Below are positions 1-13,900 of a stretch of 64,000 bases of DNA, piece after piece (positions within the stretch are counted from its first letter, which is position 1; every line of letters starts with the position of its first letter). This stretch comes from Spirulina sp. CCNP1310 (GTDB taxonomy: Bacteria > Cyanobacteriota > Cyanobacteriia > Cyanobacteriales > Spirulinaceae). The stretch covers positions 35,180 through 99,179 of the forward strand of contig NZ_JAYGHW010000066.1 in NCBI RefSeq assembly GCF_034932185.1. Direction: 5' to 3'. The position numbers and the translations under genes are program-made. The notes beneath the pieces are model-generated. The model ran no database searches and had not been told where the DNA came from. It saw only the letters and a program-made list of their open reading frames with translations.

Positions 1-2749
1 CGGGGTCTTCGCCCCCTTCCCCAGTGTTGGATTTGCCGCCGATGCGGTTCATGGCGATCGCCAACGCCTCATGGGTTTCCTTGGAAATAGAGCCGTAGCT
101 CATCGCCCCCGTTTTAAACCGCTTCATGATTGCCTCGATGGGTTCCACCTCCTCCAGGGGGATCGGTTCCCGCTCTTTAAAGGCCAGCAGATCCCGCAGC
201 CGGAATTGCTTTTTGCCTTGATCATTCACCAGAGCGGCGTATTGGCGATAAAGGTTGTAATCCCCTTCCCGCACTGCTTTTTGCAGCAGATGGATCGTTT
301 CTGGTGAGAATAAATGTTCTTCACCATCCTTGCGCCATTGGTATTCGCCCCCCACATCGAGCGTCGGGGTTGAGCCGGGGCGATCGCTAAACCCGCTATG
401 GTGGCGCAACAGGGCCTCAGCGGTAATCACGCCCAAATCCACCCCTTCCAACCGGGAGGCCGTCCAGGAGAAATAGGTATCAACAACGCTGTGGTGCAGA
501 CCAATGGCCTCGAAAATTTGCGCCCCGCGATAGCTCTGGATCGTCGAGATGCCAATTTTGGAGCCGATTTTAATCACGCCCTTCGTAGCCGCTTTGACGT
601 AGTTTTTCACCGCCGTCTTCACTTCCACACCCTTAAGCAATCCTTCCTGAATCAGGTTCTCAATACTGGCAAAGGCCACATAGGGGTTAATCGCACCGCA
701 ACCATAGCCCAACAACACCGCAAAATGATGCACCTCGCGGGGTTCCCCGGATTCGAGGACGAGGCCGACGCGGGTGCGCGTGCCGTTGCGGATCAGGTGG
801 TGGTGGAGGCCCGCCACCGCTAACAGGGCGGGAATGGGGGCATGGCTCTGATCCACGCCGCGATCGCTCAAAATCAGGATATTCTTACCGGCGGCGATCG
901 CCCCATCCGCCGCACTAAACAATTCTGCCATGGAGGATTGTAACCCCTCCACCCCTTGGGCCGCCTCAAACAAAATCGGCAGCGTTTGGGATTGGAAACC
1001 CCGCAAATTCACCCCTTTTAACTGGGACAATTCCGCATTGGTGAGGATGGGGGTGGGGAGTTGGATCAGTTGGCAGCTTTGGGGTTCCGGGTTGAGGAGG
1101 TTGCCCTCGGAGCCGATGGTGGTGACAGCGGAGGTGATGATCGCTTCCCGGATCGAGTCAATGGGGGGATTGGTAACTTGGGCAAAGAGTTGTTGGAAAT
1201 AGTCGTAGAGGAGTTTGGGGCGATCAGAAAGTGCCGCTAAGGGGGTATCCGTTCCCATCGCCCCCACCGCTTCCACGCCATTTTGGGCCATGGGGCTAAT
1301 GAGTAGCCGCAACTCTTCAAACGTGTAACCAAAGGCCTTTTGATGGGCCAACAGTTCAGCCCCCAACGTGGGCGCGGGTTCCGCCGCCGGTAAATCCGCC
1401 AAATCCACCCGGTATTGATTCAACCAATCCCGGTAGGGGTGGGCGCTGGTGATTTCCTGCTTAATTTCTTCATCGGCGACAATTCGCCCCTGCTCCATAT
1501 CGACGAGGAACATCCGCCCCGGTTCGAGGCGACCCTTAAAGGCGACCCGCTCCGGCTCAATGGGCAAGACCCCGGCTTCAGAAGCCATAATCACGAGATC
1601 ATCATGGGTGACGTAGTAACGGGAAGGGCGCAGACCGTTGCGATCCAATACTGCCCCCATCATCGTCCCATCGGTGAAGGCAATGGAAGCGGGGCCATCC
1701 CAAGGTTCCATCAAGCAGGCGTGGTATTCATAAAATGCCTTACGCTCATCGCTCATCGATTCATGGGCGGCCCAGGGTTCCGGGATCATCATCATCATTG
1801 CATGGGGCAAGGAGCGACCGGCCAGGGTCATCAATTCCAGCGTGTTATCGAAAATGGCGGAATCACTGCCGTCCATATCGATGATCGGCTGCATGGCCTT
1901 GAGGCTATCGCCAAACAGTTCCGAGGCAAAGAGGCTTTGGCGGGCGTGCATCCAGTTGATATTGCCCCGCAAGGTGTTGATTTCCCCATTGTGGGCGATG
2001 TAGTGGTAGGGGTGCGATCGCTCCCAACTGGGGAAGGTATTCGTGCTGAAGCGGGAATGCACCAACCCCAACGCACTGGTAAACCGTTCATCACTCAAAT
2101 CGGGGAAATAGCTGCGCACTTGGGGGGGGGTGAGCATCCCCTTATAAACAATCGTGCGGCTGGAAACGCTGGTGGAATACCAATATTCATCGATACCGGA
2201 GCGTTGAATTTCATGGTGCGATCGCTTACCAATCACATATAACTTGCGCTCAAACCCCAAATCATCAGCAATCTTGGGATTGCGGGCAATAAACACCTGT
2301 TGGATAAACGGCTCACTATCCCGCGCCGTCTGGCCTAAATCGCCATGATCCGTCGGCACATCGCGCCAACCGAGGATCGTTTGCCCCTCTTCTGTGGCAA
2401 TTTTTTCGAGAATTTCCCGGCCCCGTTGACGGATCGCGGGATCAGGGTTGGCAAAAAACATCCCTACGCCGTAATGGCCCGGAGCCGGGAGCGTGATCCC
2501 CTGTTCCTGGGCCGCCCCCTGGAGAAAATCATGGGGGAGTTGGGTGAGAATCCCCGCCCCGTCTCCCGTGTTGGGTTCTGCCCCGACGGCCCCCCGATGT
2601 TCGAGGTTGACCAAAATCGTCAGGGCCTGATCAACAATGGCGTGCGATCGCACTCCCTTCATCTGCACGATGAACCCAACCCCGCAGGCATCATGCTCTA
2701 GCTGTGGATCGTACAAGCCCTGTTGCTGTGGTCGTTTGATGTTAGTCAT
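1..2749 (-). CDS. gltB: Glutamate synthase large subunit, N-terminal part. The gene start is in the window; the 3' part lies beyond the window start.
   Basis: The minus-strand frame is open from the ATG (rc of cat at 2747-2749) to the window edge. The N-terminus reads [33 protein letters not shown], which contains the Ntn-amidotransferase Cys1 start (CGVGF) typical of GOGAT. It is missing from the ORF track because it runs off the edge. The plus-strand ORFs 398..823 and 1415..2242 are antisense artifacts. Confidence 0.85.
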
Positions 2750-3303
2750 GGATGCAATTCGTGAAGGGAAACAGTGAGTCGCGCAAGCAGAGATACAGTC
2801 TGAGTTTTAGAATTGTCTCTCTAAAAGCTGGGAAAGGGGATCGTTCTTAATAAAATGATCAAATCAAGTTGCATGGATCTGTAATATTTCGTTGCAGAGT
2901 CCAGCCAAGGTGTCATTGTGAGCAAATGATGACATCAAACCTATACCCAGCTTGAGATTCTCGCATTTTGATTATCAGCAAAAATAGTTTTCTAACTGTA
3001 AAATTGGTCACAAAATTAGATCGATTTTACTGCCAGGATTGCCCCTAAAGGGCCCGGTATCACGATCCTTCCTGCCCCAGTAATCTTGCTCACCCCCAGA
3101 ACATTGGGGAACTGATCGGAGCCTACTCCCAGGGCAAAAAACGAGGAAAACACCAGATTAACGGCGGTGCTTGCGAGGAATTCATCGTTGAATCGCCATC
3201 CTGGGGAAGGATTGCCAGTGATAGCCCACTGCTCTGGGGCAAATCTTGATTTAGACTGGGGTTAGCTGAGAATTTTGGTTAAACAAAAAAATTTAAGTAA
3301 ACG

Positions 3304-4125
3304 TTGATGAAGCGGGAGAGAACTATGACTGGCCAACCCTCTGTAAACCCCAGAGCCGATGCGGCTGCGATGGCCCCTAAGCCTGAGCGAGAAGCAATGA
3401 TCATTGCCCGGGATGTGGAAAAGTGGTACACCAGCAATCAATTCCATGTGTTGCGGGGGGTGAGTCTCACGGTGCGCCGGGGGGAGGTGGTGGTGATTAT
3501 GGGGCCATCAGGATCGGGAAAATCAACGTTTATCCGCACGTTTAACGCCCTCGAACCTTACCAGAAGGGGCGGATCACCATTGATGGCATTGAACTCTCC
3601 CACGATTTGAAAAATATTGATGCCATCCGTCGGGAAGTGGGGATGGTGTTTCAACAGTTTAACCTGTTTCCCCATTTGAGCGTGTTGCAAAATGTCACCC
3701 TCGCCCCCATTTGGGTGCGTCGTCGCAAAAAAGCCGAAGCAGAGGCGATCGCCCTCCAACTTCTTGAAAAAGTCGGCATCTTAGAACAGGCCCGCAAGTT
3801 TCCGGGGCAGCTTTCCGGGGGGCAACAGCAACGGGTGGCCATCGCCCGCGCCCTAGCCATGCAGCCGAAAATCATGCTTTTTGATGAACCCACCTCAGCC
3901 CTGGATCCGGAGATGGTGCGGGAGGTATTGGATACAATGCGATCGCTGGCTAATGATGGTATGACCATGGTTTGTGTCACCCATGAAGTGGGGTTTGCGC
4001 GGGAAGTCGCGGATCGGGTGGTGTTGATGGCCGATGGGGAACTGGTGGAGGAAGCCACGCCCACGGAATTTTTCACCAATCCCCGCCATGAACGCAGTAA
4101 GCAATTCCTTTCGCAAATTCTCTAA
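3304..4125 (+). CDS. Polar amino acid (glutamine-type) ABC transporter ATP-binding protein.
   Basis: Walker [13 protein letters not shown] signature [15 protein letters not shown], Walker [12 protein letters not shown]. An alternative start exists at 3325 (MTGQP). Confidence 0.85.
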
Positions 4126-4310
4126 ACCCTGTAGGGAGGCAACCACCTAAGGAGGGATAGTACTGCCTGGGCAGATCGCAGCAGCGGATTACTGGGCAGA
4201 GCCAAGTTACGCGGTTAGGAGCGAAAATCTTTTGATCCTGATACCCTTAAAAAAAGTGAGATAATAGGACTCAATTTCCCACCTTTTTTTTCTGGGAATA
4301 AAGGAGTTTC

Positions 4311-5159
4311 TTGATGTTGCTTCAATTTTTTGCGGGATTACAGCGACGTTTTCGGTTCACCCACCCATCGCGCTCTCTAGTGGCGGGAATTTTGTGTCTA
4401 GTGAGTGTGGTCGGTTGCGGTGTTGAAGCGGAAAGTATGGCCGCAATTGATGATACTGGAGATCTCCATCTCACCTATGGAAAAGCGAAAGGAGAAGAGT
4501 TTAAACGCATTCGCACCGCTTTGGAAGAAACGGGCTTTTTTGATGATCTCGTTGACCAGTTAAATGAAAAACTCGCCTTTCCCAATGACATTAATATTGT
4601 CTTTACCAATTGTGGTGTGGCTAACGCCTTCTATAGCCCTAGCGATCTTGAGATCACGATGTGCTATGAATTGATTGCTTACTATTTACAAATTTTTGAG
4701 GAAAATATCGAAACGGAGGAGGATTATCAAGCTGAAGTGATTGATGCTACATCCTTCACCTTTTTTCATGAATTGGGCCATGCGTTTGTGGATCAATATG
4801 AATTACCAATTACTGGCAATGAAGAGGATGCAGCGGATAATTTTGCAACGATTATTATGTTGGATGTCTATGGCGATGATCTGGGGGTGATTAGTGGGAT
4901 GTTCCAATTTGATGCTGAAGCGATGGAAGAAATGGAAAACCCCGAAGATCTCGCCTATTGGGGTGAACATTCCTTAAGCACCCAACGGTATTACAACACC
5001 GCTTGTTTAATTTATGGTAGCGATCCTGAAAGCTTTAGCTTCATTGTTGAGGATGAATATTTACCAGAGGAACGGGCCGAACGTTGTGAATCCGAATATG
5101 AGCAGAAATCGGCAGCTTGGTGGACTTTGATGGAGCCGTTTTTAAAGGAGGAAATTTAA
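4311..5159 (+). CDS. Putative zinc-metallopeptidase-like lipoprotein (DUF4344-like, HExxH).
   Basis: The N-terminal signal peptide has a lipobox-like VVGC. An FFHELGHAF HExxH motif is present, followed by acidic D/E-rich repeats. Confidence 0.55.
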   Translation: MMLLQFFAGLQRRFRFTHPSRSLVAGILCLVSVVGCGVEAESMAAIDDTGDLHLTYGKAKGEEFKRIRTALEETGFFDDLVDQLNEKLAFPNDINIVFTNCGVANAFYSPSDLEITMCYELIAYYLQIFEENIETEEDYQAEVIDATSFTFFHELGHAFVDQYELPITGNEEDAADNFATIIMLDVYGDDLGVISGMFQFDAEAMEEMENPEDLAYWGEHSLSTQRYYNTACLIYGSDPESFSFIVEDEYLPEERAERCESEYEQKSAAWWTLMEPFLKEEI

Positions 5160-5165
5160 CCTAAA

Positions 5166-5816
5166 ATGATTCGCCTGTTGATTGTAGATGATCAATCCAT
5201 TATTCGGGAGGGCTTGAAAAGTTTGCTCCAAGCACAACCGGATTTAGCGGTGGTGGGGTTGGCGGAACAGGGTCAGGCGGGGGTGGAGCAGGCGATCGCC
5301 CTTCAGCCTGATGTTGTCCTGATGGATATCCGGATGCCGGTCATGGATGGCGTGGCAGCAACCCGCGCCCTTCTCGCACAAGAGCCGGAGATGAAAATCT
5401 TGATCCTCACCACCTTTGATGATGATCAACTGGTGAGTCAGGCGATCCGAGCAGGGGCCAAGGGCTATCTGCTCAAGGACACTCCCTCAGAGGAGTTGGC
5501 GGAAGCGATCCGGGCGGTACAACGGGGCTATGGTCATTTGGGGCCGGGCCTCTTGGCGAAAATTATTGCTACACCGCCCCCGCCCCCTGCACCGGAGCCG
5601 CCGCCGGAGTTGGCCCAACTCACCCCCCGTGAGTTAGAAGTGTTGAACCTATTGGGGGAGGGGTTGAGCAATCGGGAAATTGCCGAGCAGTTGTATATTT
5701 CGGAGCGGACGGTGAAAAATCATGTGACGCATATTTTAGGGCGGCTCCAGTTGCGCGATCGCACCCAAGCCGCCCTGTTTGCGGTGCAATTTGCTAAACC
5801 CCTACCCCCGAACTGA
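5166..5816 (+). CDS. Two-component response regulator, NarL/FixJ (LuxR HTH) family.
   Basis: REC domain (LIVDDQ...DVVLMDIRMP...KGYLLKD), a proline-rich linker PPPPPAPEPPPE, and a C-terminal LuxR HTH (LTPRELEVLNLLGEGLSNREIAEQLYISERTVKNHV). Confidence 0.9.
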   Translation: MIRLLIVDDQSIIREGLKSLLQAQPDLAVVGLAEQGQAGVEQAIALQPDVVLMDIRMPVMDGVAATRALLAQEPEMKILILTTFDDDQLVSQAIRAGAKGYLLKDTPSEELAEAIRAVQRGYGHLGPGLLAKIIATPPPPPAPEPPPELAQLTPRELEVLNLLGEGLSNREIAEQLYISERTVKNHVTHILGRLQLRDRTQAALFAVQFAKPLPPN

Positions 5817-6927
5817 GCAGCATGGTTAATCGCTGGCTCAGTTGGGCTTTGCCGAAATGGGCGATCGCCTCTTGGCGCAACCAAGCCCCCTGACAGCGTT
5901 GATCTTCCCCCTGGAGCATGGCAATACAACCTTGGGCGATCGCCTCCACATTGCGATGCTCCACCTGCCACCCTAGGCGGCCATCCTGTAAGGGATCAGC
6001 GGAGCCATCCCCCAACCCTGATAAAACAGGGATACCGCTGGCCATGGCTTCGAGGTACACAATGCCAAACCCCTCCTGAGAGGGCATTGCATAGGCATCG
6101 GCAACGCGGTAATGGGCAGGTAATTCTGCCGTGGGGACATAGCCCGCAAAAATAACGCGATCGCTCACCCCCAAATCCGCCGCCAACTGAGCCAACCGAG
6201 GCTGATCCCCCCCCCGACCAATGACTAAATATTTCACCTCAGGAATAGCCGCAGCAATCAGGGGTAGGGCTTGAATCATCACATCCACCCCTTTATAAAT
6301 GTCTTCAGGCCAAAGGCGAGCCACGGTCCATAATACCTTAGATCCAGCTAACTGATAGCGGTCTAACAATGCCGCCGGTTTAGGCCCTGGAGTAAACTCC
6401 GCTTCATCCACCACACAGGGCAGGAATTGCACCCGTTCCGGGGGAATTTGGTAAGCCCCACAGAGGCGATCGCGGCTATGGCGACTAATGGCCCACACCT
6501 GATCCGCCCCCCGCAGGCCGCGAATTTCCCAAGGGGAGAGATATTCCCAATTTCCCCACACCTCTTTCCCGTAGGTCATTAAGGTATAGGGAATTTTCAG
6601 CAATTTGCAGTAGAGATACACCAAGGGGGCCAGCTTCACATGGCCACAGATCACCCTTTCCGGTCGTTCAAAGAGTAGGGATTGGAGTAAATGTTGGGCT
6701 AAACGGGCGCGTTCCATTGTTCGCGATTCATGGCCCAAATAGGTAAACGTCAGTTGTGGTGAATCGAGGGGATTATCAGCCGGATGCTGATCATGGAGCA
6801 ACGCCACCGTCCCCCGGCAACCCCGTTCCTTCGCCCAATCCCCATAGGCGGCCAACACATCCATCACATAGGATTGAATCCCACCTTCGCGGCTGAATAA
6901 TTCTAAAAAAGCAAAGTAATGGCTCAT
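5794..6927 (-). CDS. Glycosyltransferase family 4 (GT1 fold).
   Basis: EGFGIVYLEAMASGIPVL E-x7-E-type motif, 377 aa. The 3' end overlaps the convergent response regulator by about 22 bp. Confidence 0.8.
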   Translation of the reverse strand: MSHYFAFLELFSREGGIQSYVMDVLAAYGDWAKERGCRGTVALLHDQHPADNPLDSPQLTFTYLGHESRTMERARLAQHLLQSLLFERPERVICGHVKLAPLVYLYCKLLKIPYTLMTYGKEVWGNWEYLSPWEIRGLRGADQVWAISRHSRDRLCGAYQIPPERVQFLPCVVDEAEFTPGPKPAALLDRYQLAGSKVLWTVARLWPEDIYKGVDVMIQALPLIAAAIPEVKYLVIGRGGDQPRLAQLAADLGVSDRVIFAGYVPTAELPAHYRVADAYAMPSQEGFGIVYLEAMASGIPVLSGLGDGSADPLQDGRLGWQVEHRNVEAIAQGCIAMLQGEDQRCQGAWLRQEAIAHFGKAQLSQRLTMLLSSGVGV

Positions 6928-6977
6928 AGTGGGGGGCGATTTTCAATAGTCGTTGGCGTATAATTTTCGCGAATTGT

Positions 6978-7008
6978 TGGCGTAGGGGCGAAAAATTTTT
7001 CGCCCTAA
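6978..7008. repeat. Dispersed palindromic repeat, copy a (TGGCGTAGGGGCGAAAAATTTTTCGCCC-TAA), slightly degenerate.
   Basis: It shares the core GGGGCGAAAAATTTTTCGCCCC with seven other loci in the window. It forms the left boundary of the AT-rich island. Confidence 0.8.
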
Positions 7009-7382
7009 CCTTCAGGTTTAAGGTTAAGCCTCAGGTTCAATCCCCAAGGCTCGCAGTTGTGCCGTCAGCAGTAGCAACCATGGCATCATTAGAGAACATC
7101 TGCTCACCATTCTAGCCTGTTATCTCCGGCCTGTCCCCACGCTTTCATCTGTGATGGGGCAAGCTTGCTAAAATATCCCAGGATTACAAAAAAGAGCTAC
7201 AATAAAATTATTGTTTTTTTGTATCAATACAAAAGTATTGCTATGGGAAGATTTTGGGCAGGAATAGTTTATCGAATTTACCTTTGGGTTTGTTGTATGA
7301 GACTTTCTTCTCTCAATGAGTTGTTAAACTCTTCCTCGCTTTTAGTTTTGTACCGTTAAAAAGAAAAGAGGTAAAAGCTTTT

Positions 7383-7811
7383 ATGCGTAATAAAGTTGTT
7401 GCTATCCTTCTCACATTTTTTCTGGGTTGGTTCGGAGTTCATCAGTTTTATCTGGGCCAGAATGTTCGTGCTTTTTTTTATCTTATCTTTTGCTGGACTT
7501 GGATTCCTGCTCTCCTTTCCATTTTTGACTTCGTTGGACTTTTGTTGATGTCGGAGGAAGATTTTGAGCGACGTTTCAACGATGGAAAACGTGGCAAAGC
7601 CGGACAAGCCGCACTGCCTAGCCGTAAACTTCAACAACGTCTCCTCAAAGTTTGCAAGGAATACCGAGGTGCAACTCTTAGCGATTGTGTCATTGAAACT
7701 GGAGCCGACTTGGAAGAAGTGAAGATGATCCTGGATCGCTTTGCTCGGCAAGGTCTTGTGAGCGTCGAAAACCGAATACACGACGGTGCTGTAATCTATA
7801 AAACCATATAA
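7383..7811 (+). CDS. TM2-domain membrane protein with a C-terminal soluble (winged-helix-like) domain.
   Basis: The N-terminus has two TM helices with the TM2/NINE-like motif FFLGWFGVHQFYLGQ. The C-terminal 80 aa are charged (LLKVCKEYRGATLSDCVIETGADLEEVKMILDRFARQGLV). The gene lies in a low-GC region. Confidence 0.6.
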   Translation: MRNKVVAILLTFFLGWFGVHQFYLGQNVRAFFYLIFCWTWIPALLSIFDFVGLLLMSEEDFERRFNDGKRGKAGQAALPSRKLQQRLLKVCKEYRGATLSDCVIETGADLEEVKMILDRFARQGLVSVENRIHDGAVIYKTI

Positions 7812-7855
7812 AAATTTGTTGCCAAGACATAAAGTGTCAAGAAATAGGCTATTAA

Positions 7856-7900
7856 ATACCCCTCTTATATCTAGATTGAGAGAAGAGGGGTATTTACATT
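7856..7900 (+). terminator. Intrinsic terminator-like hairpin downstream of the TM2 gene.
   Basis: ATACCCCTCTT-N16-AAGAGGGGTAT is a perfect 11-bp stem with an internal TCTAGA, followed by TTTACATTTCT. Confidence 0.5.
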
Positions 7901-7954
7901 TCTGCCTAAATTCAAAACAACTCTAAATGGTTCAGCGTAATGATTGCACAACTA

Positions 7955-7991
7955 GTTGTCACTTGACAACCAATGATTTTAGGTTTACATT
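7955..7991 (+). promoter_or_regulatory. Putative sigma70-type promoter (TTGACA-17-TACATT) overlapped by the inverted repeat GTTGTCA-N2-TGACAAC (candidate operator).
   Basis: A perfect -35 TTGACA sits at 7963-7968 and TACATT at 7986-7991. The AAGG RBS lies 6 nt before the ATG at 8009. The palindrome 7955-7970 overlaps the -35. Confidence 0.45.
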
Positions 7992-8008
7992 TAAAAGTAA
8001 AGGCTGAC

Positions 8009-8266
8009 ATGGGTAGACGATCTCATCCAAAACAAGAGGTTGAGGCTGCGCTAAAGTATGCTGAACAAAATGGCTGGCGCGTTGATGTGGGTGGATCACA
8101 CGCTTGGGGTAAAATCTACTGCCCCTATAACGATCAGGAATGCAGATGTGGCAACTTTTGTATATCCAGTGTTTGGAGTACTCCAAAAAATGCCGGAAAT
8201 CACGCGAGGCAGATTCGTCAAGTAGTCGATAACTGTATAAGATATAACCGCGAAGAGGAAAAATAA
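8009..8266 (+). CDS. HicA-like (YcfA fold) small protein with a Cys-rich insertion; putative toxin of a TA-like pair.
   Basis: KQEVEAALKYAEQNGWRVDVGGSHAWGKIYCP matches the HicA pattern (hydrophobic-x2-L-x3-G[FW]-x5-GSH-x5-P). The distal PKNAGNHARQIRQVV resembles the HicA C-terminus. There is a CPYNDQECRCGNFC insert. The ORF-track start at 7973 would lie inside the predicted promoter, so the ATG at 8009 is preferred. Confidence 0.45.
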   Translation: MGRRSHPKQEVEAALKYAEQNGWRVDVGGSHAWGKIYCPYNDQECRCGNFCISSVWSTPKNAGNHARQIRQVVDNCIRYNREEEK

Positions 8267-8269
8267 GCA

Positions 8270-8797
8270 ATGAAAGAGTATGATTTTACATTGAAATTTA
8301 GTATTGGGAATTTCCCAATTGACCCTGATAGCTATGTTGAGGCTTTATACACAGGTGGTTGTGATGATGCTTTGATTGGAGTTGGTAAAAAAGGATATCT
8401 TTCACTCAATTTTATTCGAGAAGCATCATCAGCCTATGACGCTATTTCTACTGCTATTGCTGATGTTAAAAATGTAATTCCATCTGCAAACTTGATTGAA
8501 GCAGCACCAGATTTTGTCGGATTGACAGATGTAGCCAAAATTATTGGCTGCACTCGACAAAATATCAGAAAGCTCATTGTTGAAAGTGAGCCAAGATCCT
8601 TACTTCCTATTTATGAAGGTACACCCTCAATTTGGCATTTAGCGGAAATCCTAGCTTGGTTGCGAGAATTCAAGACATATTCCATTGATGATTCATTAAT
8701 GGAGATTGCCAAAGCTAATATGGACATTAATATTGCGAAAAGCTGGCAGAAAGTAGCGCCAACTGCTCAAGAAAAAATTCAGCGTCTTGCTTTGTAA
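8270..8797 (+). CDS. N-domain + helix-turn-helix DNA-binding protein; putative antitoxin/regulator partner.
   Basis: It starts 3 nt after the upstream stop. The N-terminal ~90 aa contain GGCDDALIGVG. The central HTH is LTDVAKIIGCTRQNIRKLI (AlpA/MerR-like). Confidence 0.5.
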   Translation: MKEYDFTLKFSIGNFPIDPDSYVEALYTGGCDDALIGVGKKGYLSLNFIREASSAYDAISTAIADVKNVIPSANLIEAAPDFVGLTDVAKIIGCTRQNIRKLIVESEPRSLLPIYEGTPSIWHLAEILAWLREFKTYSIDDSLMEIAKANMDINIAKSWQKVAPTAQEKIQRLAL

Positions 8798-8822
8798 GAT
8801 GGAATCCAGTTGTATCCCTGAT

Positions 8823-8854
8823 TGGCGTGGGGGCGAAAAATTTTTCGCCCCTAC
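8823..8854. repeat. Dispersed palindromic repeat, copy b (TGGCGTGGGGGCGAAAAATTTTTCGCCCCTAC).
   Basis: Full-length copy. It forms the right boundary of the AT-rich island. Confidence 0.85.
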
Positions 8855-8890
8855 TGGGGATTTTGCTGATCTTTTGAGACGGGTTATTTT

Positions 8891-8950
8891 AGCCCCCTTA
8901 AAGATAAACCCCTCGCCCAAGGAGGGGAGGGGCTTTGGGTTTTTGATTTT
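8891..8950 (+). terminator. Hairpin plus T-tract, possible terminator.
   Basis: AGCCCC...CCCCTC-gcccaag-GAGGGG-AGGGGCT followed by TTGGGTTTTTGATTTT. Confidence 0.3.
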
Positions 8951-8995
8951 ATACCTTTGCGATAGTCAGCGGACTGAAGTCCTGAGGATGAACGC

Positions 8996-9319
8996 TTAGG
9001 AAGCTAAGGCGACTTCAACCATTTGTTGGAGTTCGCCACTTTGGTAAAGCTCGATCAGGATATCGGAACCGCCTAAAAATTCCCCGTTGAGATAAACTTG
9101 GGGGATGGTGGGCCAGTTGGAATATTCCTTGATGCCTTGGCGGACTTCGGGATCAGAGAGGACATCGAAGGTGGTGAAGGGTACACCGCAAATGTTGAGA
9201 ATTTGCACAACATTGTTAGAAAAACCGCATTGGGGCATTAACTTGGAACCCTTCATAAACACAACGATTTTATCTTGTTGTACGAGGTCGTCAATGCGTT
9301 TTTGGACTTCTGGAGTCAT
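8996..9319 (-). CDS. grxD: Monothiol glutaredoxin (Grx4/GrxD type, CGFS).
   Basis: The CGFS active site lies in ...[17 protein letters not shown]... The protein is 107 aa with a C-terminal [19 protein letters not shown]. Confidence 0.92.
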
Positions 9320-9372
9320 GGTGATTTAGGGGGTAGTAGAACAGGAAAAAGGAAAGATGTTGGTTTGAAAAG

Positions 9373-9627
9373 TTAGGCGTTGGCGATCGCCCAACTATCC
9401 GGGGTATAGGTTTTCAAGGCCAGGGCGTGGATGGCTTCAGTGGCTAGGGCTTCTTGTAAAGCACCGTAGACCATCTGATGCTGCTTAACGCGGGTCTTCC
9501 CTTCAAATGCGGTGGAAATAACCGTCGCTTGAAGATGATCCCCGCCGCCGGTCAAGTCCTCAACGGTGACTTGGGCATCGGGCAATTGGGCCTTAATCAT
9601 GGATTCAACTTGGTCTAGGCTCACCAT
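9373..9627 (-). CDS. bolA: BolA family protein.
   Basis: 84 aa with a BolA-like fold signature (...[31 protein letters not shown]...). It lies immediately upstream of the CGFS Grx on the same strand, the classic BolA-Grx pair. Confidence 0.8.
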
Positions 9628-9714
9628 AGGTCAGTTTACAAAGGGGTCTTCAAACATAAACTTGATTTTAACGCTCTGTTCCCCATTCAGGGGATGGTTG
9701 TCAGTAGGATTGGC

Positions 9715-10794
9715 TTAATCCGCAAAACCCAGTTCCACCAATTGCTGGAAGGCTCGCTCGCCAAGGCCGTTGGTGGGATTTTGCGATCGCACGATCTGGA
9801 TCAACAAGGGAACCGAGAGTTCCGGCTGATTTTGGGCGCGGTGAACGAGGGCCAATTGATAGGTGGTTTGATCCCGCAGTTGAGCACTGTCAAGGGCTTT
9901 TTGTCGCTGATCTTGGGCAACTTCGCGATCAATGCCAGAAAAGGTTTCGGAAAGTTGCTGATGGAAATTAGAGAGTTGATTAAACACTTGCCGGGCTTGC
10001 TGAAACTTGTTCTGGGCTTGGTTGTAGTCCCCGGCATTGACCGCCGCTTCTGCTTCACGGATCAAGTTTTGGCCGCCTTCAAAGCTGAGTAATGTGGGGG
10101 TTGCTTCCGGGATAATTTGGGCAAAATCGCCAGTGGGTTGCACAAAACCAAACCGCACCAATTGTTCATGGGCTTGGCGACCGAGGGGGGTGGTGGGATT
10201 TTGCGATCGCACAATTTGGATCAGCAACGGAATGGATAAATCCGTCCGGCCTTGGGCATGGTGGGCTAAAGCCAGTTCATAGGTGGATTGATCCCGCAGT
10301 TGGGCGGTTTCGAGGGCCTGTTGCCGTTGCTGGGCAGCGCGGCGGCTGTTAATGCCCGCAAAACTGCCGGAGAGTTGTTGATAAAAATTGGAAAGTTGGT
10401 TAAAGACTTGGCGGGTAGCTTGGAGCTTTTCCACCGCTAGGTCATAGTTGCCTTGGGCGCTGGCGTTGCGCCCCGCTTCCAGTAATGCCATGCCGCCGGG
10501 CATACTTAAAACACTGCTGCTTTGTTGCAAAATCCGGGGATCTTCGACAGCAAAGGGATCTGGCTCAGGGTTCGATAATTCTTGGGCTTGAACCCCCCCA
10601 GGAAGTCCTAGGGTTAAAACCGTCAAACTGGCCAACATCAGGGGGTGGATAATCTGCTTGAATCTCATTGAAGCCCTCAGACCCATTCCTAAAAACAGTA
10701 AAATTGATTGCAATCGTTTCCTACGATACCCTGTTTCAGACATAATTCTTAAAAAAAAGTTCTGTACTGGTGATGATCGCTCCGCCATGGTCAC
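9715..10794 (-). CDS. Secreted hypothetical protein with an internal ~150-aa tandem duplication.
   Basis: It has a signal peptide (LASLTVLTLGLPGGVQA). Two repeats share RQVFNQLSNF(Y/H)QQLS...AQLRDQ(S/T)TY(E/Q)LAL...(I/V)PLLIQIVRSQNPT...LG...QL(V)(R/E)(F/L)GF. Confidence 0.6.
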   Translation of the reverse strand: MTMAERSSPVQNFFLRIMSETGYRRKRLQSILLFLGMGLRASMRFKQIIHPLMLASLTVLTLGLPGGVQAQELSNPEPDPFAVEDPRILQQSSSVLSMPGGMALLEAGRNASAQGNYDLAVEKLQATRQVFNQLSNFYQQLSGSFAGINSRRAAQQRQQALETAQLRDQSTYELALAHHAQGRTDLSIPLLIQIVRSQNPTTPLGRQAHEQLVRFGFVQPTGDFAQIIPEATPTLLSFEGGQNLIREAEAAVNAGDYNQAQNKFQQARQVFNQLSNFHQQLSETFSGIDREVAQDQRQKALDSAQLRDQTTYQLALVHRAQNQPELSVPLLIQIVRSQNPTNGLGERAFQQLVELGFAD

Positions 10795-10930
10795 GAATCC
10801 CGGAGAAGCAACCCGTTGAGGCGATCGCCGATTTTTTCCACTCCCCGTGATGGGTTGGCCCAGATCCCATCTGCCACAACCTTGGGGGATTGGGTATTCT
10901 GGAAAGGATCCGTGCTTGCTCGCCCCCGTT

Positions 10931-13900
10931 ATGGCCTACACCGTTAGCGAAATTCAAAGCTTTCTGACTGCTCAAACCCCCTTAGGGATGTTGCCACCAG
11001 GGGCGATCGCCGCTGTTTTAGGGCGGATGCGGCCCTTTCGCTATCGCATGGGTCAAACCCTGTTGGTACGAGACAAGATCCCCCATCAGGTGGTGATTTT
11101 GTATGAGGGACAGGTGCGGCTGATTGGCTATGATCCCACAACGAAAATGCCCCTAACGCTGCAACTGCTCCAACCGGGGGACATGATCGGCTGGGTGAGT
11201 TTGCTGCGGGGCATTCCTTGCGAAACGGCGATCGCCTCCACGGAAACCGTCGCCATTACCCTTGGGGCCGAGGAATTTTTCGCCGTCCTCCAGCGTTTCC
11301 CCGATGTGGCGGCTCAATTTCATCAAGGGACGGCGATCGCTGAAGTCTTCGACCTCCTCTCCCGTCAAACCCTCCCCAACCTCAAAGACAGTAATGCCCT
11401 CAAGGAATGGGTGCAAAATGCTGCCAACCATGCCCAAGTTTGTAGCCTGCCCCCCGGTCGTCACCTCCTCCAAGACGAACCCGCCCGCATCCTCCAATAC
11501 CCTAATCTCGTTTGGTTTGTCAGCGGTGGCGGCCAAGTCACCCACTTTAAACCCGGCTATCCCATCAGCCTCGACCCCCAACAACGGAGCCTAGAGGTGG
11601 TGGGGGAATATCCTGCCCGGCTAATCGGCATTCAAGCCGCCGACCTCCTCCCCGTTGCCATTGCGGACACTTTCGCCGATCCCGATACCGTCCAACTATC
11701 ACCAGAGCCAGCAGAAATTCCCTACGCCGCCGAATTGGAAACCGTTGACGCGCCCACCCCCCCCAGCGCCGCCCCGAAGCCCAACCGCCAAGATTATCCC
11801 CTCGTTAAGGGGCGATCGCAACTCGATGCAGCGGTGGCCTGTTTCCAGATGTTGAGCCAATATTTTCGGATGCCCTTCCGTCGGGATGTGATTGAGCGGG
11901 TGTTAGGGGATCAACTGCGGCGACAGGGGAGCTTATCCCTCTATAACTGTGGCTCGGTGGCGGAACTCATGGGATTAACGGCGCAATTGGTGAATATTCC
12001 CGCTTCTGCGTTAACGCGATTACAGGGGCCGGCCTTGGTGCAGTGGCAAGACCGGCTGGCGGTACTCTATGAAATTAGTGATCAGGAGTTGGTGATTGGT
12101 GCGCCGGAGGTGGGGATTCTACGGCGCAAGCCCAAGGATTTCCTTGAAGCCTGGGATGATGTGGGCCAGGTGGTGCTGTTGCAACCCTCGAAATATACCC
12201 CCCAGGAACGCTTTGGTCTCAGTTGGTTTTGGCCGGTGTTATGGAAATATAAGGGCGTGTTAACAGAAGTATTTATCGCTTCCTTCTTTGTGCAACTTTT
12301 TGCCCTCGCTAATCCCCTAATTATTCAAGTAATCATCGATAAGGTCATTGTCCAAAATAGTACGGAAACGCTGCAAGTTTTGGGGTTTTTCCTGCTAGGG
12401 GTGGCGATTTTTGAATTTATCCTCAGTACGGTACGCACCTATCTGTTTGTGGATACCACAAACCGCATTGATATGAGCTTGGGGTCAGAAATCATTGATC
12501 ACCTGCTGCGATTACCCCTGAGTTATTTTGACCGTCGCCCGGTGGGGGAACTGTCCAGCCGCATTAATGAGTTGGAAAATATCCGTACATTCTTAACCGG
12601 AACCGCCTTAACAGTGGTTTTAGATGCGGTTTTTTCGGTGATTTATATTGCCGTGATGTTCTTTTACAGTTGGCGGCTGTCACTGTTGGGGCTGGCCATT
12701 GTGCCAATTTTCATTATCACGACACTGATTTTTTCCCCCTTAATCCGCCATCAACTGCGGATCAAGGCGGAACGCAACGCTGAAACCCAATCTCATCTGG
12801 TGGAGGTGGTTTCGGGGATTCAAACGGTGAAGGCGCAAAATATTGAGTTGCGATCGCGCTGGCGGTGGCAAGAACATTACGCCCGCTACGTTTCCGCCGG
12901 GTTTAAAACCGTGCAGACTTCAACCCTAGCGAATTCTGCCAGTAATTTCCTCAATAAAATTTCTGGCCTGTTGGTGCTGTGGGGTGGGGCCTATTTGGTG
13001 TTACAGGGGGATCTGAGTTTAGGGCAGTTAATTGCCTTTCGGATCATTGCCAGCTATGTCACTAGTCCCCTATTACGGTTGGCGCAACTGTGGCAAAACT
13101 TCCAAGAGGTGGGGCTATCTTTGGAGCGGTTGGGGGATATTTTAGATAGTCCTCAGGAAGGGGAAGCGGATCAGGGGAATATCCCGATGCCATCGGTGGT
13201 GGGGGCGGTGAAATATGAAAATGTTTCTTTCCGGTTTAAACCCAATGGGCCGCTGCAATTGGTGAATGTTAACCTTGATATTCCGGCGGGGAGTTTTGTC
13301 GGGGTGGTGGGGAAAAGTGGGGCGGGCAAAAGTACGCTGACGAAATTGCTCGTGCGTTTATACGATTGGGAAACGGGGCGGATTTTGCTCGATGGTTACG
13401 ATGTGGCCAAGGTGGAGCTTTATTCCCTGCGGCGACAAATCGGGGTTGTACCCCAAGAGCCATTATTATTTGATGGCACGATTCAGGAAAATATCGCCCT
13501 CAATAACCCCGAAGCCTCTAGTGAGGAGATTATCGAGGCGGCAAGGGTGGCGGCGGCCCATGATTTTATTATGGAGTTGTCCAGTGGCTATAACACGCGG
13601 GTGGGGGAGCGGGGGGCGAGTTTGTCGGGGGGACAACGGCAACGGATTGCGATCGCCCGCACCGTGTTGCAACGCCCTGCCTTTCTGATTTTGGATGAAG
13701 CCACCAGCGCCCTCGATTACCCCACGGAGCAGCAGGTTTGTAGTAATTTAGCCCAAGCCTTTCGCGATCGCACCGTCATTTTCATCACCCACCGTTTAGG
13801 AACAGTTCAGGGGGCGGATCAAATTGTGATGATGGACAGCGGCGCGGTGGTAGAAGTGGGAACCCACGCGGAACTGATCGCCCTCGAAGGTCGCTACTTC

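Follow-up and report, generated by a model that had tools for sequence, protein, structure and literature searches.

A widespread two-gene cassette with toxin–antitoxin-like anatomy in Spirulina sp. CCNP1310, matching the candidate defence system PDC-M06

Organisation of the Locus

The stretch of DNA considered here, termed the window, is a 64-kb segment (64,000 nt) of contig NZ_JAYGHW010000066.1 from the cyanobacterium Spirulina sp. CCNP1310, with all coordinates given on its forward strand. Reading of the sequence between 7700 and 9100, together with the list of open reading frames (ORFs), has revealed two ORFs on the same strand, A and then B, which are separated by a 3-nt gap (Table 1). 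A and B are real genes which are tightly coupled and have the appearance of being co-transcribed. The cassette that they form with the sequence upstream of them displays the generic anatomy of a type II toxin–antitoxin (TA) module, namely abutting bicistronic genes, a helix-turn-helix (HTH) partner and a palindrome over the promoter. An initial annotation, made from the sequence alone, had described a small ORF followed by a gene starting 3 nt after its stop codon, and these coordinates agree in both the sequence and the ORF list. The start codon and ribosome-binding site which it assigned to the small ORF are both present, that start being common to the homologues, and the peptide motifs it cited (GGSHAWGKIYCP, CPYNDQECRCGNFC and GGCDDALIGVG) all occur in the translations. 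An ATG at 7973 was considered as an alternative start for A and rejected, since homologues begin at the same methionine at 8009 and the −10 element lies downstream of 7973. The region of about 7000–8900 has a GC content of 36–43%, as compared with 50–60% in its flanks.

Table 1. Coordinates of the cassette features and of a neighbouring palindrome in the window
Feature	Position	Strand	Description
Palindromic operator (putative), GTTGTCA-CT-TGACAAC	7955–7970	.	Repeat finder; 5′ edge of the conserved cassette
−35 element, TTGACA	7963–7968	+	Consensus scan; inside the right half of the palindrome
−10 element, TACATT	7986–7991	+	Consensus scan; 17-nt spacer from the −35
Ribosome-binding site, AAGG	8000–8003	+	5 nt before the ATG of A; direct sequence reading
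Gene A	8009–8266	+	85 aa, Cys/His-rich, begins MGRRSHPK; ATG at 8009, stop TAA at 8264–8266; PDC-M06A family, presumed toxin/effector
Cys-rich loop of A, CPYNDQECRCGNFC	8120–8161	+	Residues 38–51, between strands 2 and 3; probable metal site with C76
Gene B	8270–8797	+	175 aa; ATG at 8270, stop ends at 8797; PDC-M06B family, presumed antitoxin and autorepressor
Perfect 22-nt palindrome, GGGGCGAAAAATTTTTCGCCCC	8830–8851	.	33 nt past the B stop; sequence reading

Family Membership, Pairing and Distribution

Both proteins are matched end to end by models of PADLOC-DB v2, with A and B adjacent and A first. The 91-position model PDC-M06A matches A over residues 1–84 (E 2.8e-48), and PDC-M06B matches B over residues 1–173 of 174 (E 4.6e-68). 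Judging by these profile matches, the cassette in the window is a member of the PADLOC candidate defence system PDC-M06. This agrees with the suggestion in the initial annotation of a TA or phage-defence candidate. The further suggestion that it is a new variant does not hold, as the pair is already catalogued and a distant pair from the E. coli phage Cyrano has already been named HicA/HicB (PMC9928086). Systems with the PDC prefix have been described in a survey as 'unpublished candidate systems' (PMC11811056), and no mention of PDC-M06 was found in the searched literature; the catalogue entry differs from the present description in carrying no mechanism, operator, fold or distribution.

The family is large and phylogenetically broad. 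Searches with a word index returned 420 homologues of A, at 65–83% identity, and 1642 of B, and a full HMMER scan with a profile of A returned 697 clusters at 50% identity (E ≤1e-3). Out of 185,579 species representatives, at least 591 had a relative of A in a pattern scan of one genome per species. Their hosts include cyanobacteria, Beta-, Gamma- and Alphaproteobacteria and Thermodesulfobacteriota, to which look-ups of individual contigs add Gemmatimonadota. In PHROGs, A corresponds to phrog_5923, a family of unknown function. A has no exact match in a collection of 15 billion proteins (best match 83%), though B of the same genome does have one, and A therefore appears to have been left uncalled in the Spirulina sp. 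CCNP1310 annotation. Likewise, in many plasmid records no feature is annotated where A matches, and annotation pipelines frequently overlook this small gene.

Pairing of the two genes is close to universal in the loci examined. In all 86 A-anchored loci the gene immediately following A is B, and A lies upstream of B in 71 of the 75 B-anchored metagenomic loci with room upstream. The distance from the stop codon of A to the start of B is −4 to +4 nt in 116/139 distinct cassettes. In 138 of these 139, A shows the higher conservation of the two, with median identities to the window proteins of 71% for A and 52% for B. Nucleotide homology to other cassettes starts at about 7940–7955 and ends at about 8780–8798, at the B stop codon, and neither flanking repeats nor a second operator or half-site downstream of B were detected in 158 loci. 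A gene for a TM2-domain protein upstream of the window copy was considered as a third member of the cassette and rejected, having no homologue in any related locus. From these homology limits, the lack of a shared TM2 gene and the lack of a downstream repeat, the coordinates of the cassette delimit a minimal unit of 845 bp, from the palindrome to the stop codon of B.

Intact copies of B have also been observed beside a degraded A (L097, L115, L147 and L151) or with no A (L107, L108, L123 and L143). Loss or degradation of A next to an intact B is the pattern expected for orphan antitoxins.

Promoter and Operator

The promoter proposed in the initial annotation, TTGACA and TACATT with a 17-nt spacer, is exactly as described and matches the consensus at 10 of 12 positions. 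Equally exact is the GTTGTCA-N2-TGACAAC repeat reported to overlap the −35 element: it is a perfect 7-2-7 inverted repeat with arms at 7955–7961 and 7964–7970, in a layout that is conserved across phyla. Within the 64-kb window the operator 16-mer is single-copy, even with 2 mismatches allowed (0.15 expected). Across the family, 72 of 87 sources have the core palindrome no more than 200 nt ahead of A by a strict pattern, and single-base variants of it are present in several others. Ten central operator positions are invariant in 65 distinct homologous upstream sequences, and the core has been kept in cyanobacteria, Proteobacteria, Gemmatimonadota and Thermodesulfobacteriota. In most loci this core, GTTGTCA-N-T-TGACAAC, is placed about 37–53 nt upstream of the A start codon, and TTGAC[AC] followed at 17-nt spacing by a −10-like hexamer is found in 103/124 cassettes. 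The proteobacterial −10 element (CATACT) ends just 11 nt before the ATG, so that the mRNA there would have little or no leader. Given the comparative conservation, the palindrome can be taken as something other than a chance feature. The conserved layout is that of an autorepressed operon, with B as the protein that would presumably bind the palindrome.

In the Chamaesiphon loci L012, L015, L019 and L020, two operator copies have been observed upstream of A. The copy at about −95 to −100 is perfect, whereas that at about −55 (ATTGTCACTCGACAAC) is imperfect.

Self-Complementary Arms Beyond the Operator Core

In most loci the complementarity extends past the core, the next 1–5 positions on each side (up to 10) being complementary as well, and extended palindromes reach 17 + 17 nt (loci L007–L086, some 40–60 nt ahead of A); the window copy has 7-nt arms only. 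The outer-arm sequences vary from locus to locus, as in GCCAAGG/CCTTGGC, CGGGGAGG/CCTCCCCG and AAGCATAAA/TTTATGCTT. Their covariation score was 0.279, as against 0.153 ± 0.011 for column shuffles, none of 500 of which scored as high, and slid controls gave 0.08–0.16. The possibility that these arms are specificity determinants which co-evolve with the HTH of B was considered and is disfavoured, as their correlation with the HTH is no stronger than that with A. Furthermore, of 84 pairs of loci whose HTH regions are almost the same, 67% have at least 4 differences among the 10 outer positions; arms that change under a nearly identical HTH make co-evolving half-site specificity unlikely. This leaves selection for a hairpin or cruciform, or 'perfection' of a quasi-palindrome by template switching, as the remaining accounts.

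Protein A

The AlphaFold2 (AF2) model of A, obtained with an alignment of 53 sequences, has a predicted local distance difference test (pLDDT) score of 83.6. It comprises a helix (residues 9–20), three strands (24–27, 34–37 and 52–55) and a second helix (62–84), in the order alpha-beta-beta-beta-alpha, and its sole low-confidence stretch is the loop of residues 38–51. Among close relatives, M1, R3, H6, E12, W23, G29, H31, W33, G34, C38, P39, N41, C45, R46, G48, C51, W56, S57, T58, P59 and D74 are invariant, and S30, between the invariant G29 and H31, is 84% conserved. In a diverse set, H6, P59 and C76 remain invariant, and conservation of H31, C38 and C51 is 90% or higher. The loop has two forms, one long (CPYNDxECRCGxFC) and one short (CPxxxR[DE]-GC), with C38, C51 and C76 kept in both and with a histidine in place of C51 in the branch found on phage-plasmids. 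The initial annotation had described a zinc-finger-like cysteine insert: the Cys-rich segment is indeed present, but it is no peculiarity of this copy, as the loop is conserved throughout the family. The cysteines C38, C51 and C76 may constitute a structural metal site that would hold together the ends of strand 2 and helix 2 and the beginning of strand 3, and the conserved histidines H6, H31 and H65 are candidate catalytic residues.

No Pfam or NCBIfam family was assigned to A. Searches of PDB sequences and profiles with A, B, A1, A2 and A4 returned noise alone (ribosomal S6, thioredoxin reductase, merlin). Assignment of A to the PD-(D/E)xK nucleases (VRR-NUC/Hjc-like) was tried and rejected, since A does not have the D...(D/E)xK motif that strands 2 and 3 of such nucleases carry.

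Particular attention has been given to HicA, as the small ORF had been reported to match the HicA (YcfA) pattern. This is not borne out by profile methods, neither Pfam nor hhalign reporting HicA. No match to PF07927 (HicA_toxin) was obtained at E values up to 1–5 for A or for its Cyrano homologue, and of 80 diverse relatives just 2 gave sub-threshold matches (best E 0.047), weaker than chance matches to RuBisCO_small. The control set of four HicA sequences, one of them exact to PDB 6hpb, scored 31–82 bits against the same profile. Comparison by hhalign of three A-family alignments, one restricted to short-loop members, with a HicA profile gave probabilities of 5.3%, 18.4% and 19.8%; this profile was a narrow one, built from E. 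coli HicA (exact to PDB 6hpb), PF07927-annotated relatives and three further HicA sequences which pass the Pfam cut-off. The registers of these alignments disagree. One run pairs helix 1 and the G-S-H turn, and the other two pair the N-terminal R-H-P-x-K-E-I-E of A with P-x-H-P-x-K-E-L of HicA. In the latter two, residues 3–19 of A (into helix 1, ...G-W) are aligned with residues ~38–59 of HicA (into helix 2, ...G-L). Such a register hints at a relocated motif or a permutation and, at an hhalign probability below 20%, serves as a lead. A Foldseek search of A against the PDB gave no match at an E value of 0.001 or better and no HicA among 97 weak matches. In A, G29-S30-H31 lies in the turn between strands 1 and 2, where HicA has G-S-H, the equivalence of H31 and HicA H24 being one of topology alone. 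These comparisons do not support membership of A in the HicA family; on the predicted model, a HicA-like fold is plausible.

Protein B

The AF2 model of B has a pLDDT of 86.3 and comprises a ferredoxin-like N-terminal domain (beta-alpha-beta-beta-alpha-beta, about 1–79), an HTH with a small wing, probably of the AlpA/excisionase type (about 83–135), and two C-terminal helices (141–174). B is 100% identical to an annotated 'DNA-binding protein' of Spirulina sp. CCNP1310, and in PHROGs it corresponds to phrog_2620, 'excisionase and transcriptional regulator'. No Pfam or NCBIfam family was matched, including any HicB family, and an N-terminal domain of the HicB type (partial RNase-H-like) was not seen. 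The initial assignment of B to an AlpA/MerR-like HTH protein rather than to the HicB fold is consistent with this lack of a HicB match and with the ferredoxin-like domain of the model. As far as found in the searched literature, this domain architecture has not been described for antitoxins.

Genomic Contexts

The cassette occupies several kinds of surroundings. In a Gemmatimonadota metagenome-assembled genome and in Dyella it is located among housekeeping genes, and elsewhere it is found among transposases. In many Proteobacteria the order is guaA, a P4-type integrase (Arm-DNA-bind_3 and Phage_integrase), A, B and then variable cargo, which includes Hachiman HamB, Thoeris ThsB with Nmad2, PD-Lambda-3 and a ThiF/E1 protein. 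Such guaA islands were delineated in L033, L037, L058, L064 and L065 (about 2500–8200 in each), and the conserved sequence upstream of the proteobacterial cassettes is the 3′ end of the integrase gene. In GIsul2 and the PIMEs, elements which target guaA, it is alpA that comes after the integrase, and excision depends on alpA or is stimulated by it (PMC9376610; bioRxiv 10.64898/2026.01.12.698999). A-B thus looks like one part of the conserved backbone of a defence-island family, in the slot that alpA has in those elements. The window copy is not in a recognisable defence island. Reading of the translations at 5000–12000 revealed no integrase-like ORF, the TM2 ORF being the only one scanned with profiles.

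A distant branch, in which A has ~39% identity, is located in the replication region of SSU5-type phage-plasmids, represented by Salmonella phage SSU5 (L088, 2504–3371) and E. coli phage Cyrano (L087, 2498–3346). A search with the Cyrano A homologue returned 279 plasmids, among them 63 from Yersinia, 80 from Escherichia and 81 from Enterobacter, and the Yersinia pestis plasmids with the pair are about 77–137 kb in size. In Cyrano, the two genes have been annotated as 'HicA toxin protein' and 'putative antitoxin HicB', and their expression in a lysogen has been reported to lie above the prophage background (PMC9928086). This annotation is the only association of HicA with SSU5 or with AlpA found in the searched literature, and in RefSeq the A gene of the phage-plasmids is labelled hypothetical. 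A view of the cassette as mainly a phage gene was also considered and rejected, since just 9 IMG/VR contigs contain a relative, 8 of them distant (37–41% identity).

Neighbouring Features

Upstream of the cassette, and in the same low-GC segment, the gene at 7383–7811 encodes the membrane protein with the TM2 domain (Pfam E 1.8e-16), and behind it, at 7853–7896, lies a terminator-like hairpin with 19-nt arms that are 89% complementary. The palindrome GGGGCGAAAAATTTTTCGCCCC downstream of B is outside the conserved cassette; it could terminate the operon and/or a convergent glutaredoxin-like gene at 8996–9319, and it was not called by a terminator scan. A scan of 7000–9500 against Rfam returned no RNA family.

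Comparison with Known Systems

Among characterised modules, HicAB (PF07927; PDB 6hpb, 5yrz, 6g26, 4p78 and 1whz) shares several properties with the cassette. The toxin gene (in the cassette, the presumed one) comes first, a palindromic operator lies at the promoter, and a small protein of ~60–90 aa, with a G-S-H turn and an alpha-beta-beta-beta-alpha order which for A is a predicted one, is accompanied by a partner with a DNA-binding domain. Nonetheless, there is no significant sequence or profile similarity between the two systems. A has a conserved Cys loop of 8–14 residues and C76, which probably form a metal site and which HicA does not have, as well as a long C-terminal helix, and its H-P-x-K-E motif precedes helix 1, whereas that of HicA precedes helix 2. 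The partners differ as well, B combining a ferredoxin-like domain with a winged HTH resembling the AlpA/excisionase type, in contrast to the partial RNase-H-like domain of HicB with its ribbon-helix-helix or Xre HTH.

MqsRA is another toxin-first system, with a two-domain antitoxin whose C-terminal HTH binds a promoter palindrome and with a structural zinc site. In that system the zinc is located in the antitoxin MqsA and the toxin is RelE-like, whereas here the cysteine cluster is in A and a Cys4 motif is lacking from B. None of the searches made related MqsRA to A or B by sequence. In its canonical form, AlpA is a small, stand-alone HTH protein of ~70 aa. B resembles the AlpA/Xis proteins of GIsul2 and the PIMEs in its AlpA/excisionase-like HTH and in the position of the proteobacterial A-B directly after a guaA-adjacent P4-type integrase. 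It differs from them in its 175 aa with an additional N-terminal domain, in being always paired with A, in the existence of integrase-free copies and in an operator that would control A-B itself.

Interpretation

Taken as a whole, the cassette is probably, at a level of confidence that leaves considerable room for doubt, an autoregulated type II TA-like addiction or abortive-infection module which is widespread and horizontally mobile. In such a module, dimers of B would bind the palindrome through the winged HTH of the AlpA/excisionase type and thereby repress the operon, and the ferredoxin-like N-terminal domain of B would bind and neutralise A. A would act as the effector, with a Cys3(+His/Cys) metal site (C38, C51 and C76) as its brace and with H6, H31 in the G-S-H turn and H65 forming an active site of the nuclease type, probably that of a HicA-like RNase. 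When B is lost or degraded, whether through loss of the element or through phage infection, free A would be expected to arrest growth.

Several points weigh against this interpretation. The searched literature contains no experiments on toxicity, neutralisation, DNA binding or phage defence for any member of the family. Homology to HicA is statistically unsupported, so that the activity proposed for A is a guess. A frameshifted or truncated B was found beside an intact A in L002, L050, L064 and L085, of which L064 (4284–4797) is on the chromosome of a complete genome, that of Variovorax ureilyticus P51, and shares an identical A with L065. Such a combination is difficult to reconcile with a potent toxin, unless the defects in B stem from sequencing errors or its remaining N-terminal domain is still able to neutralise A. 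Finally, in the proteobacterial islands the pair occupies the alpA slot of related guaA islands, which suggests a regulatory role instead.

This last point leads to the strongest competing explanation, according to which the two genes serve mobile elements as regulators and are not toxic. B would be a recombination directionality factor resembling AlpA, or else a transcriptional regulator, of islands and phage-plasmids, and A a small metal-binding co-regulator or anti-repressor by which B is modulated. Stand-alone copies such as that of the window would then be remnants or general-purpose regulators. The guaA-integrase-A-B order in many Proteobacteria, with alpA in the same slot in GIsul2 and the PIMEs (PMC9376610; bioRxiv 10.64898/2026.01.12.698999), fits this explanation well, and so does the tolerance of an intact A beside a broken B in 4 loci. 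It accounts less readily for the presence of the same cassette and operator without a nearby integrase in the window, Gemmatimonadota and Dyella, or for the pair on SSU5-type phage-plasmids, which do not integrate. Moreover, the operator precedes A-B and not int, and the unit of homology consists exactly of the promoter, A and B. A is the more conserved partner, which would be unusual for an accessory co-regulator, and PADLOC models the pair as a two-gene defence candidate. A purely regulatory pair is accordingly regarded as unlikely, if deserving of serious attention.

A second explanation regards the cassette as a divergent but genuine HicAB, in which A would be a HicA mRNA interferase with a loop insertion and B a HicB whose HicA-binding domain has been replaced. 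It draws on the helix-strand-strand-strand-helix topology of the AF2 model, as in the double-stranded-RNA-binding-domain-like fold of HicA, with G29-S30-H31 in the turn between strands 1 and 2, on the toxin-first order shared with hicAB, on the names HicA/HicB given to the distant homologues by the Cyrano annotators (PMC9928086) and on the 2/80 relatives with sub-threshold PF07927 matches. Those two matches are weaker than the chance RuBisCO_small matches, however, and A itself has none; hhalign remains at 5–20%, with its two best local alignments in different registers, and the Foldseek list contains no HicA. The N-terminal domain of B is ferredoxin-like and matches no HicB Pfam family. Having failed every statistical test applied, this explanation is judged quite improbable.

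A more far-reaching extension of the TA-like interpretation would have A as a new class of toxin, a metal-braced nuclease of HicA-like topology in which H-P-x-K-E has been relocated from a position preceding helix 2 to one preceding helix 1, and B as a new antitoxin architecture of ferredoxin-like and AlpA-type HTH domains. The fast-changing self-complementary arms would also be functional: by forming a cruciform or hairpin at the 5′ edge, they would make toxin derepression, or mobility of the 845-bp cassette, responsive to supercoiling, single-stranded DNA or replication stress when a phage infects or the element is transferred. This combination is a long shot.

That the ORFs and the palindrome have arisen by chance, in a region that is AT-rich and intergenic or part of an island, as the low GC fraction (0.36–0.43 against 0.5–0.6 in the flanks) and the apparent absence of A from the deposited annotation might suggest, is refuted to the point of deserving practically no credence by hundreds of homologues with 62–87% amino-acid identity across phyla, by conserved synteny and operator, and by two confident AF2 models.

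Significance

The TA-like module proposed here is very common, being present in several phyla and on phage-plasmids of E. coli, Enterobacter and Salmonella as well as on Y. pestis plasmids of ~100 kb (the pMT1 size class), and the pair is carried by medically relevant plasmids. PDC-M06 is catalogued yet uncharacterised, and relative to the known TA families it contributes a small protein with no family assignment and a probable metal brace. The minimal 845-bp unit with its invariant 16-bp operator constitutes an unusually clean and compact test system, and the change of the outer arms under a constant HTH could inform the study of palindrome evolution or of the use of operator structure. If A does prove to be a metal-braced nuclease of the HicA-like kind, the variety of toxins known from TA systems would be extended, and annotation pipelines would gain a name for thousands of genes which are at present 'hypothetical' or missing.

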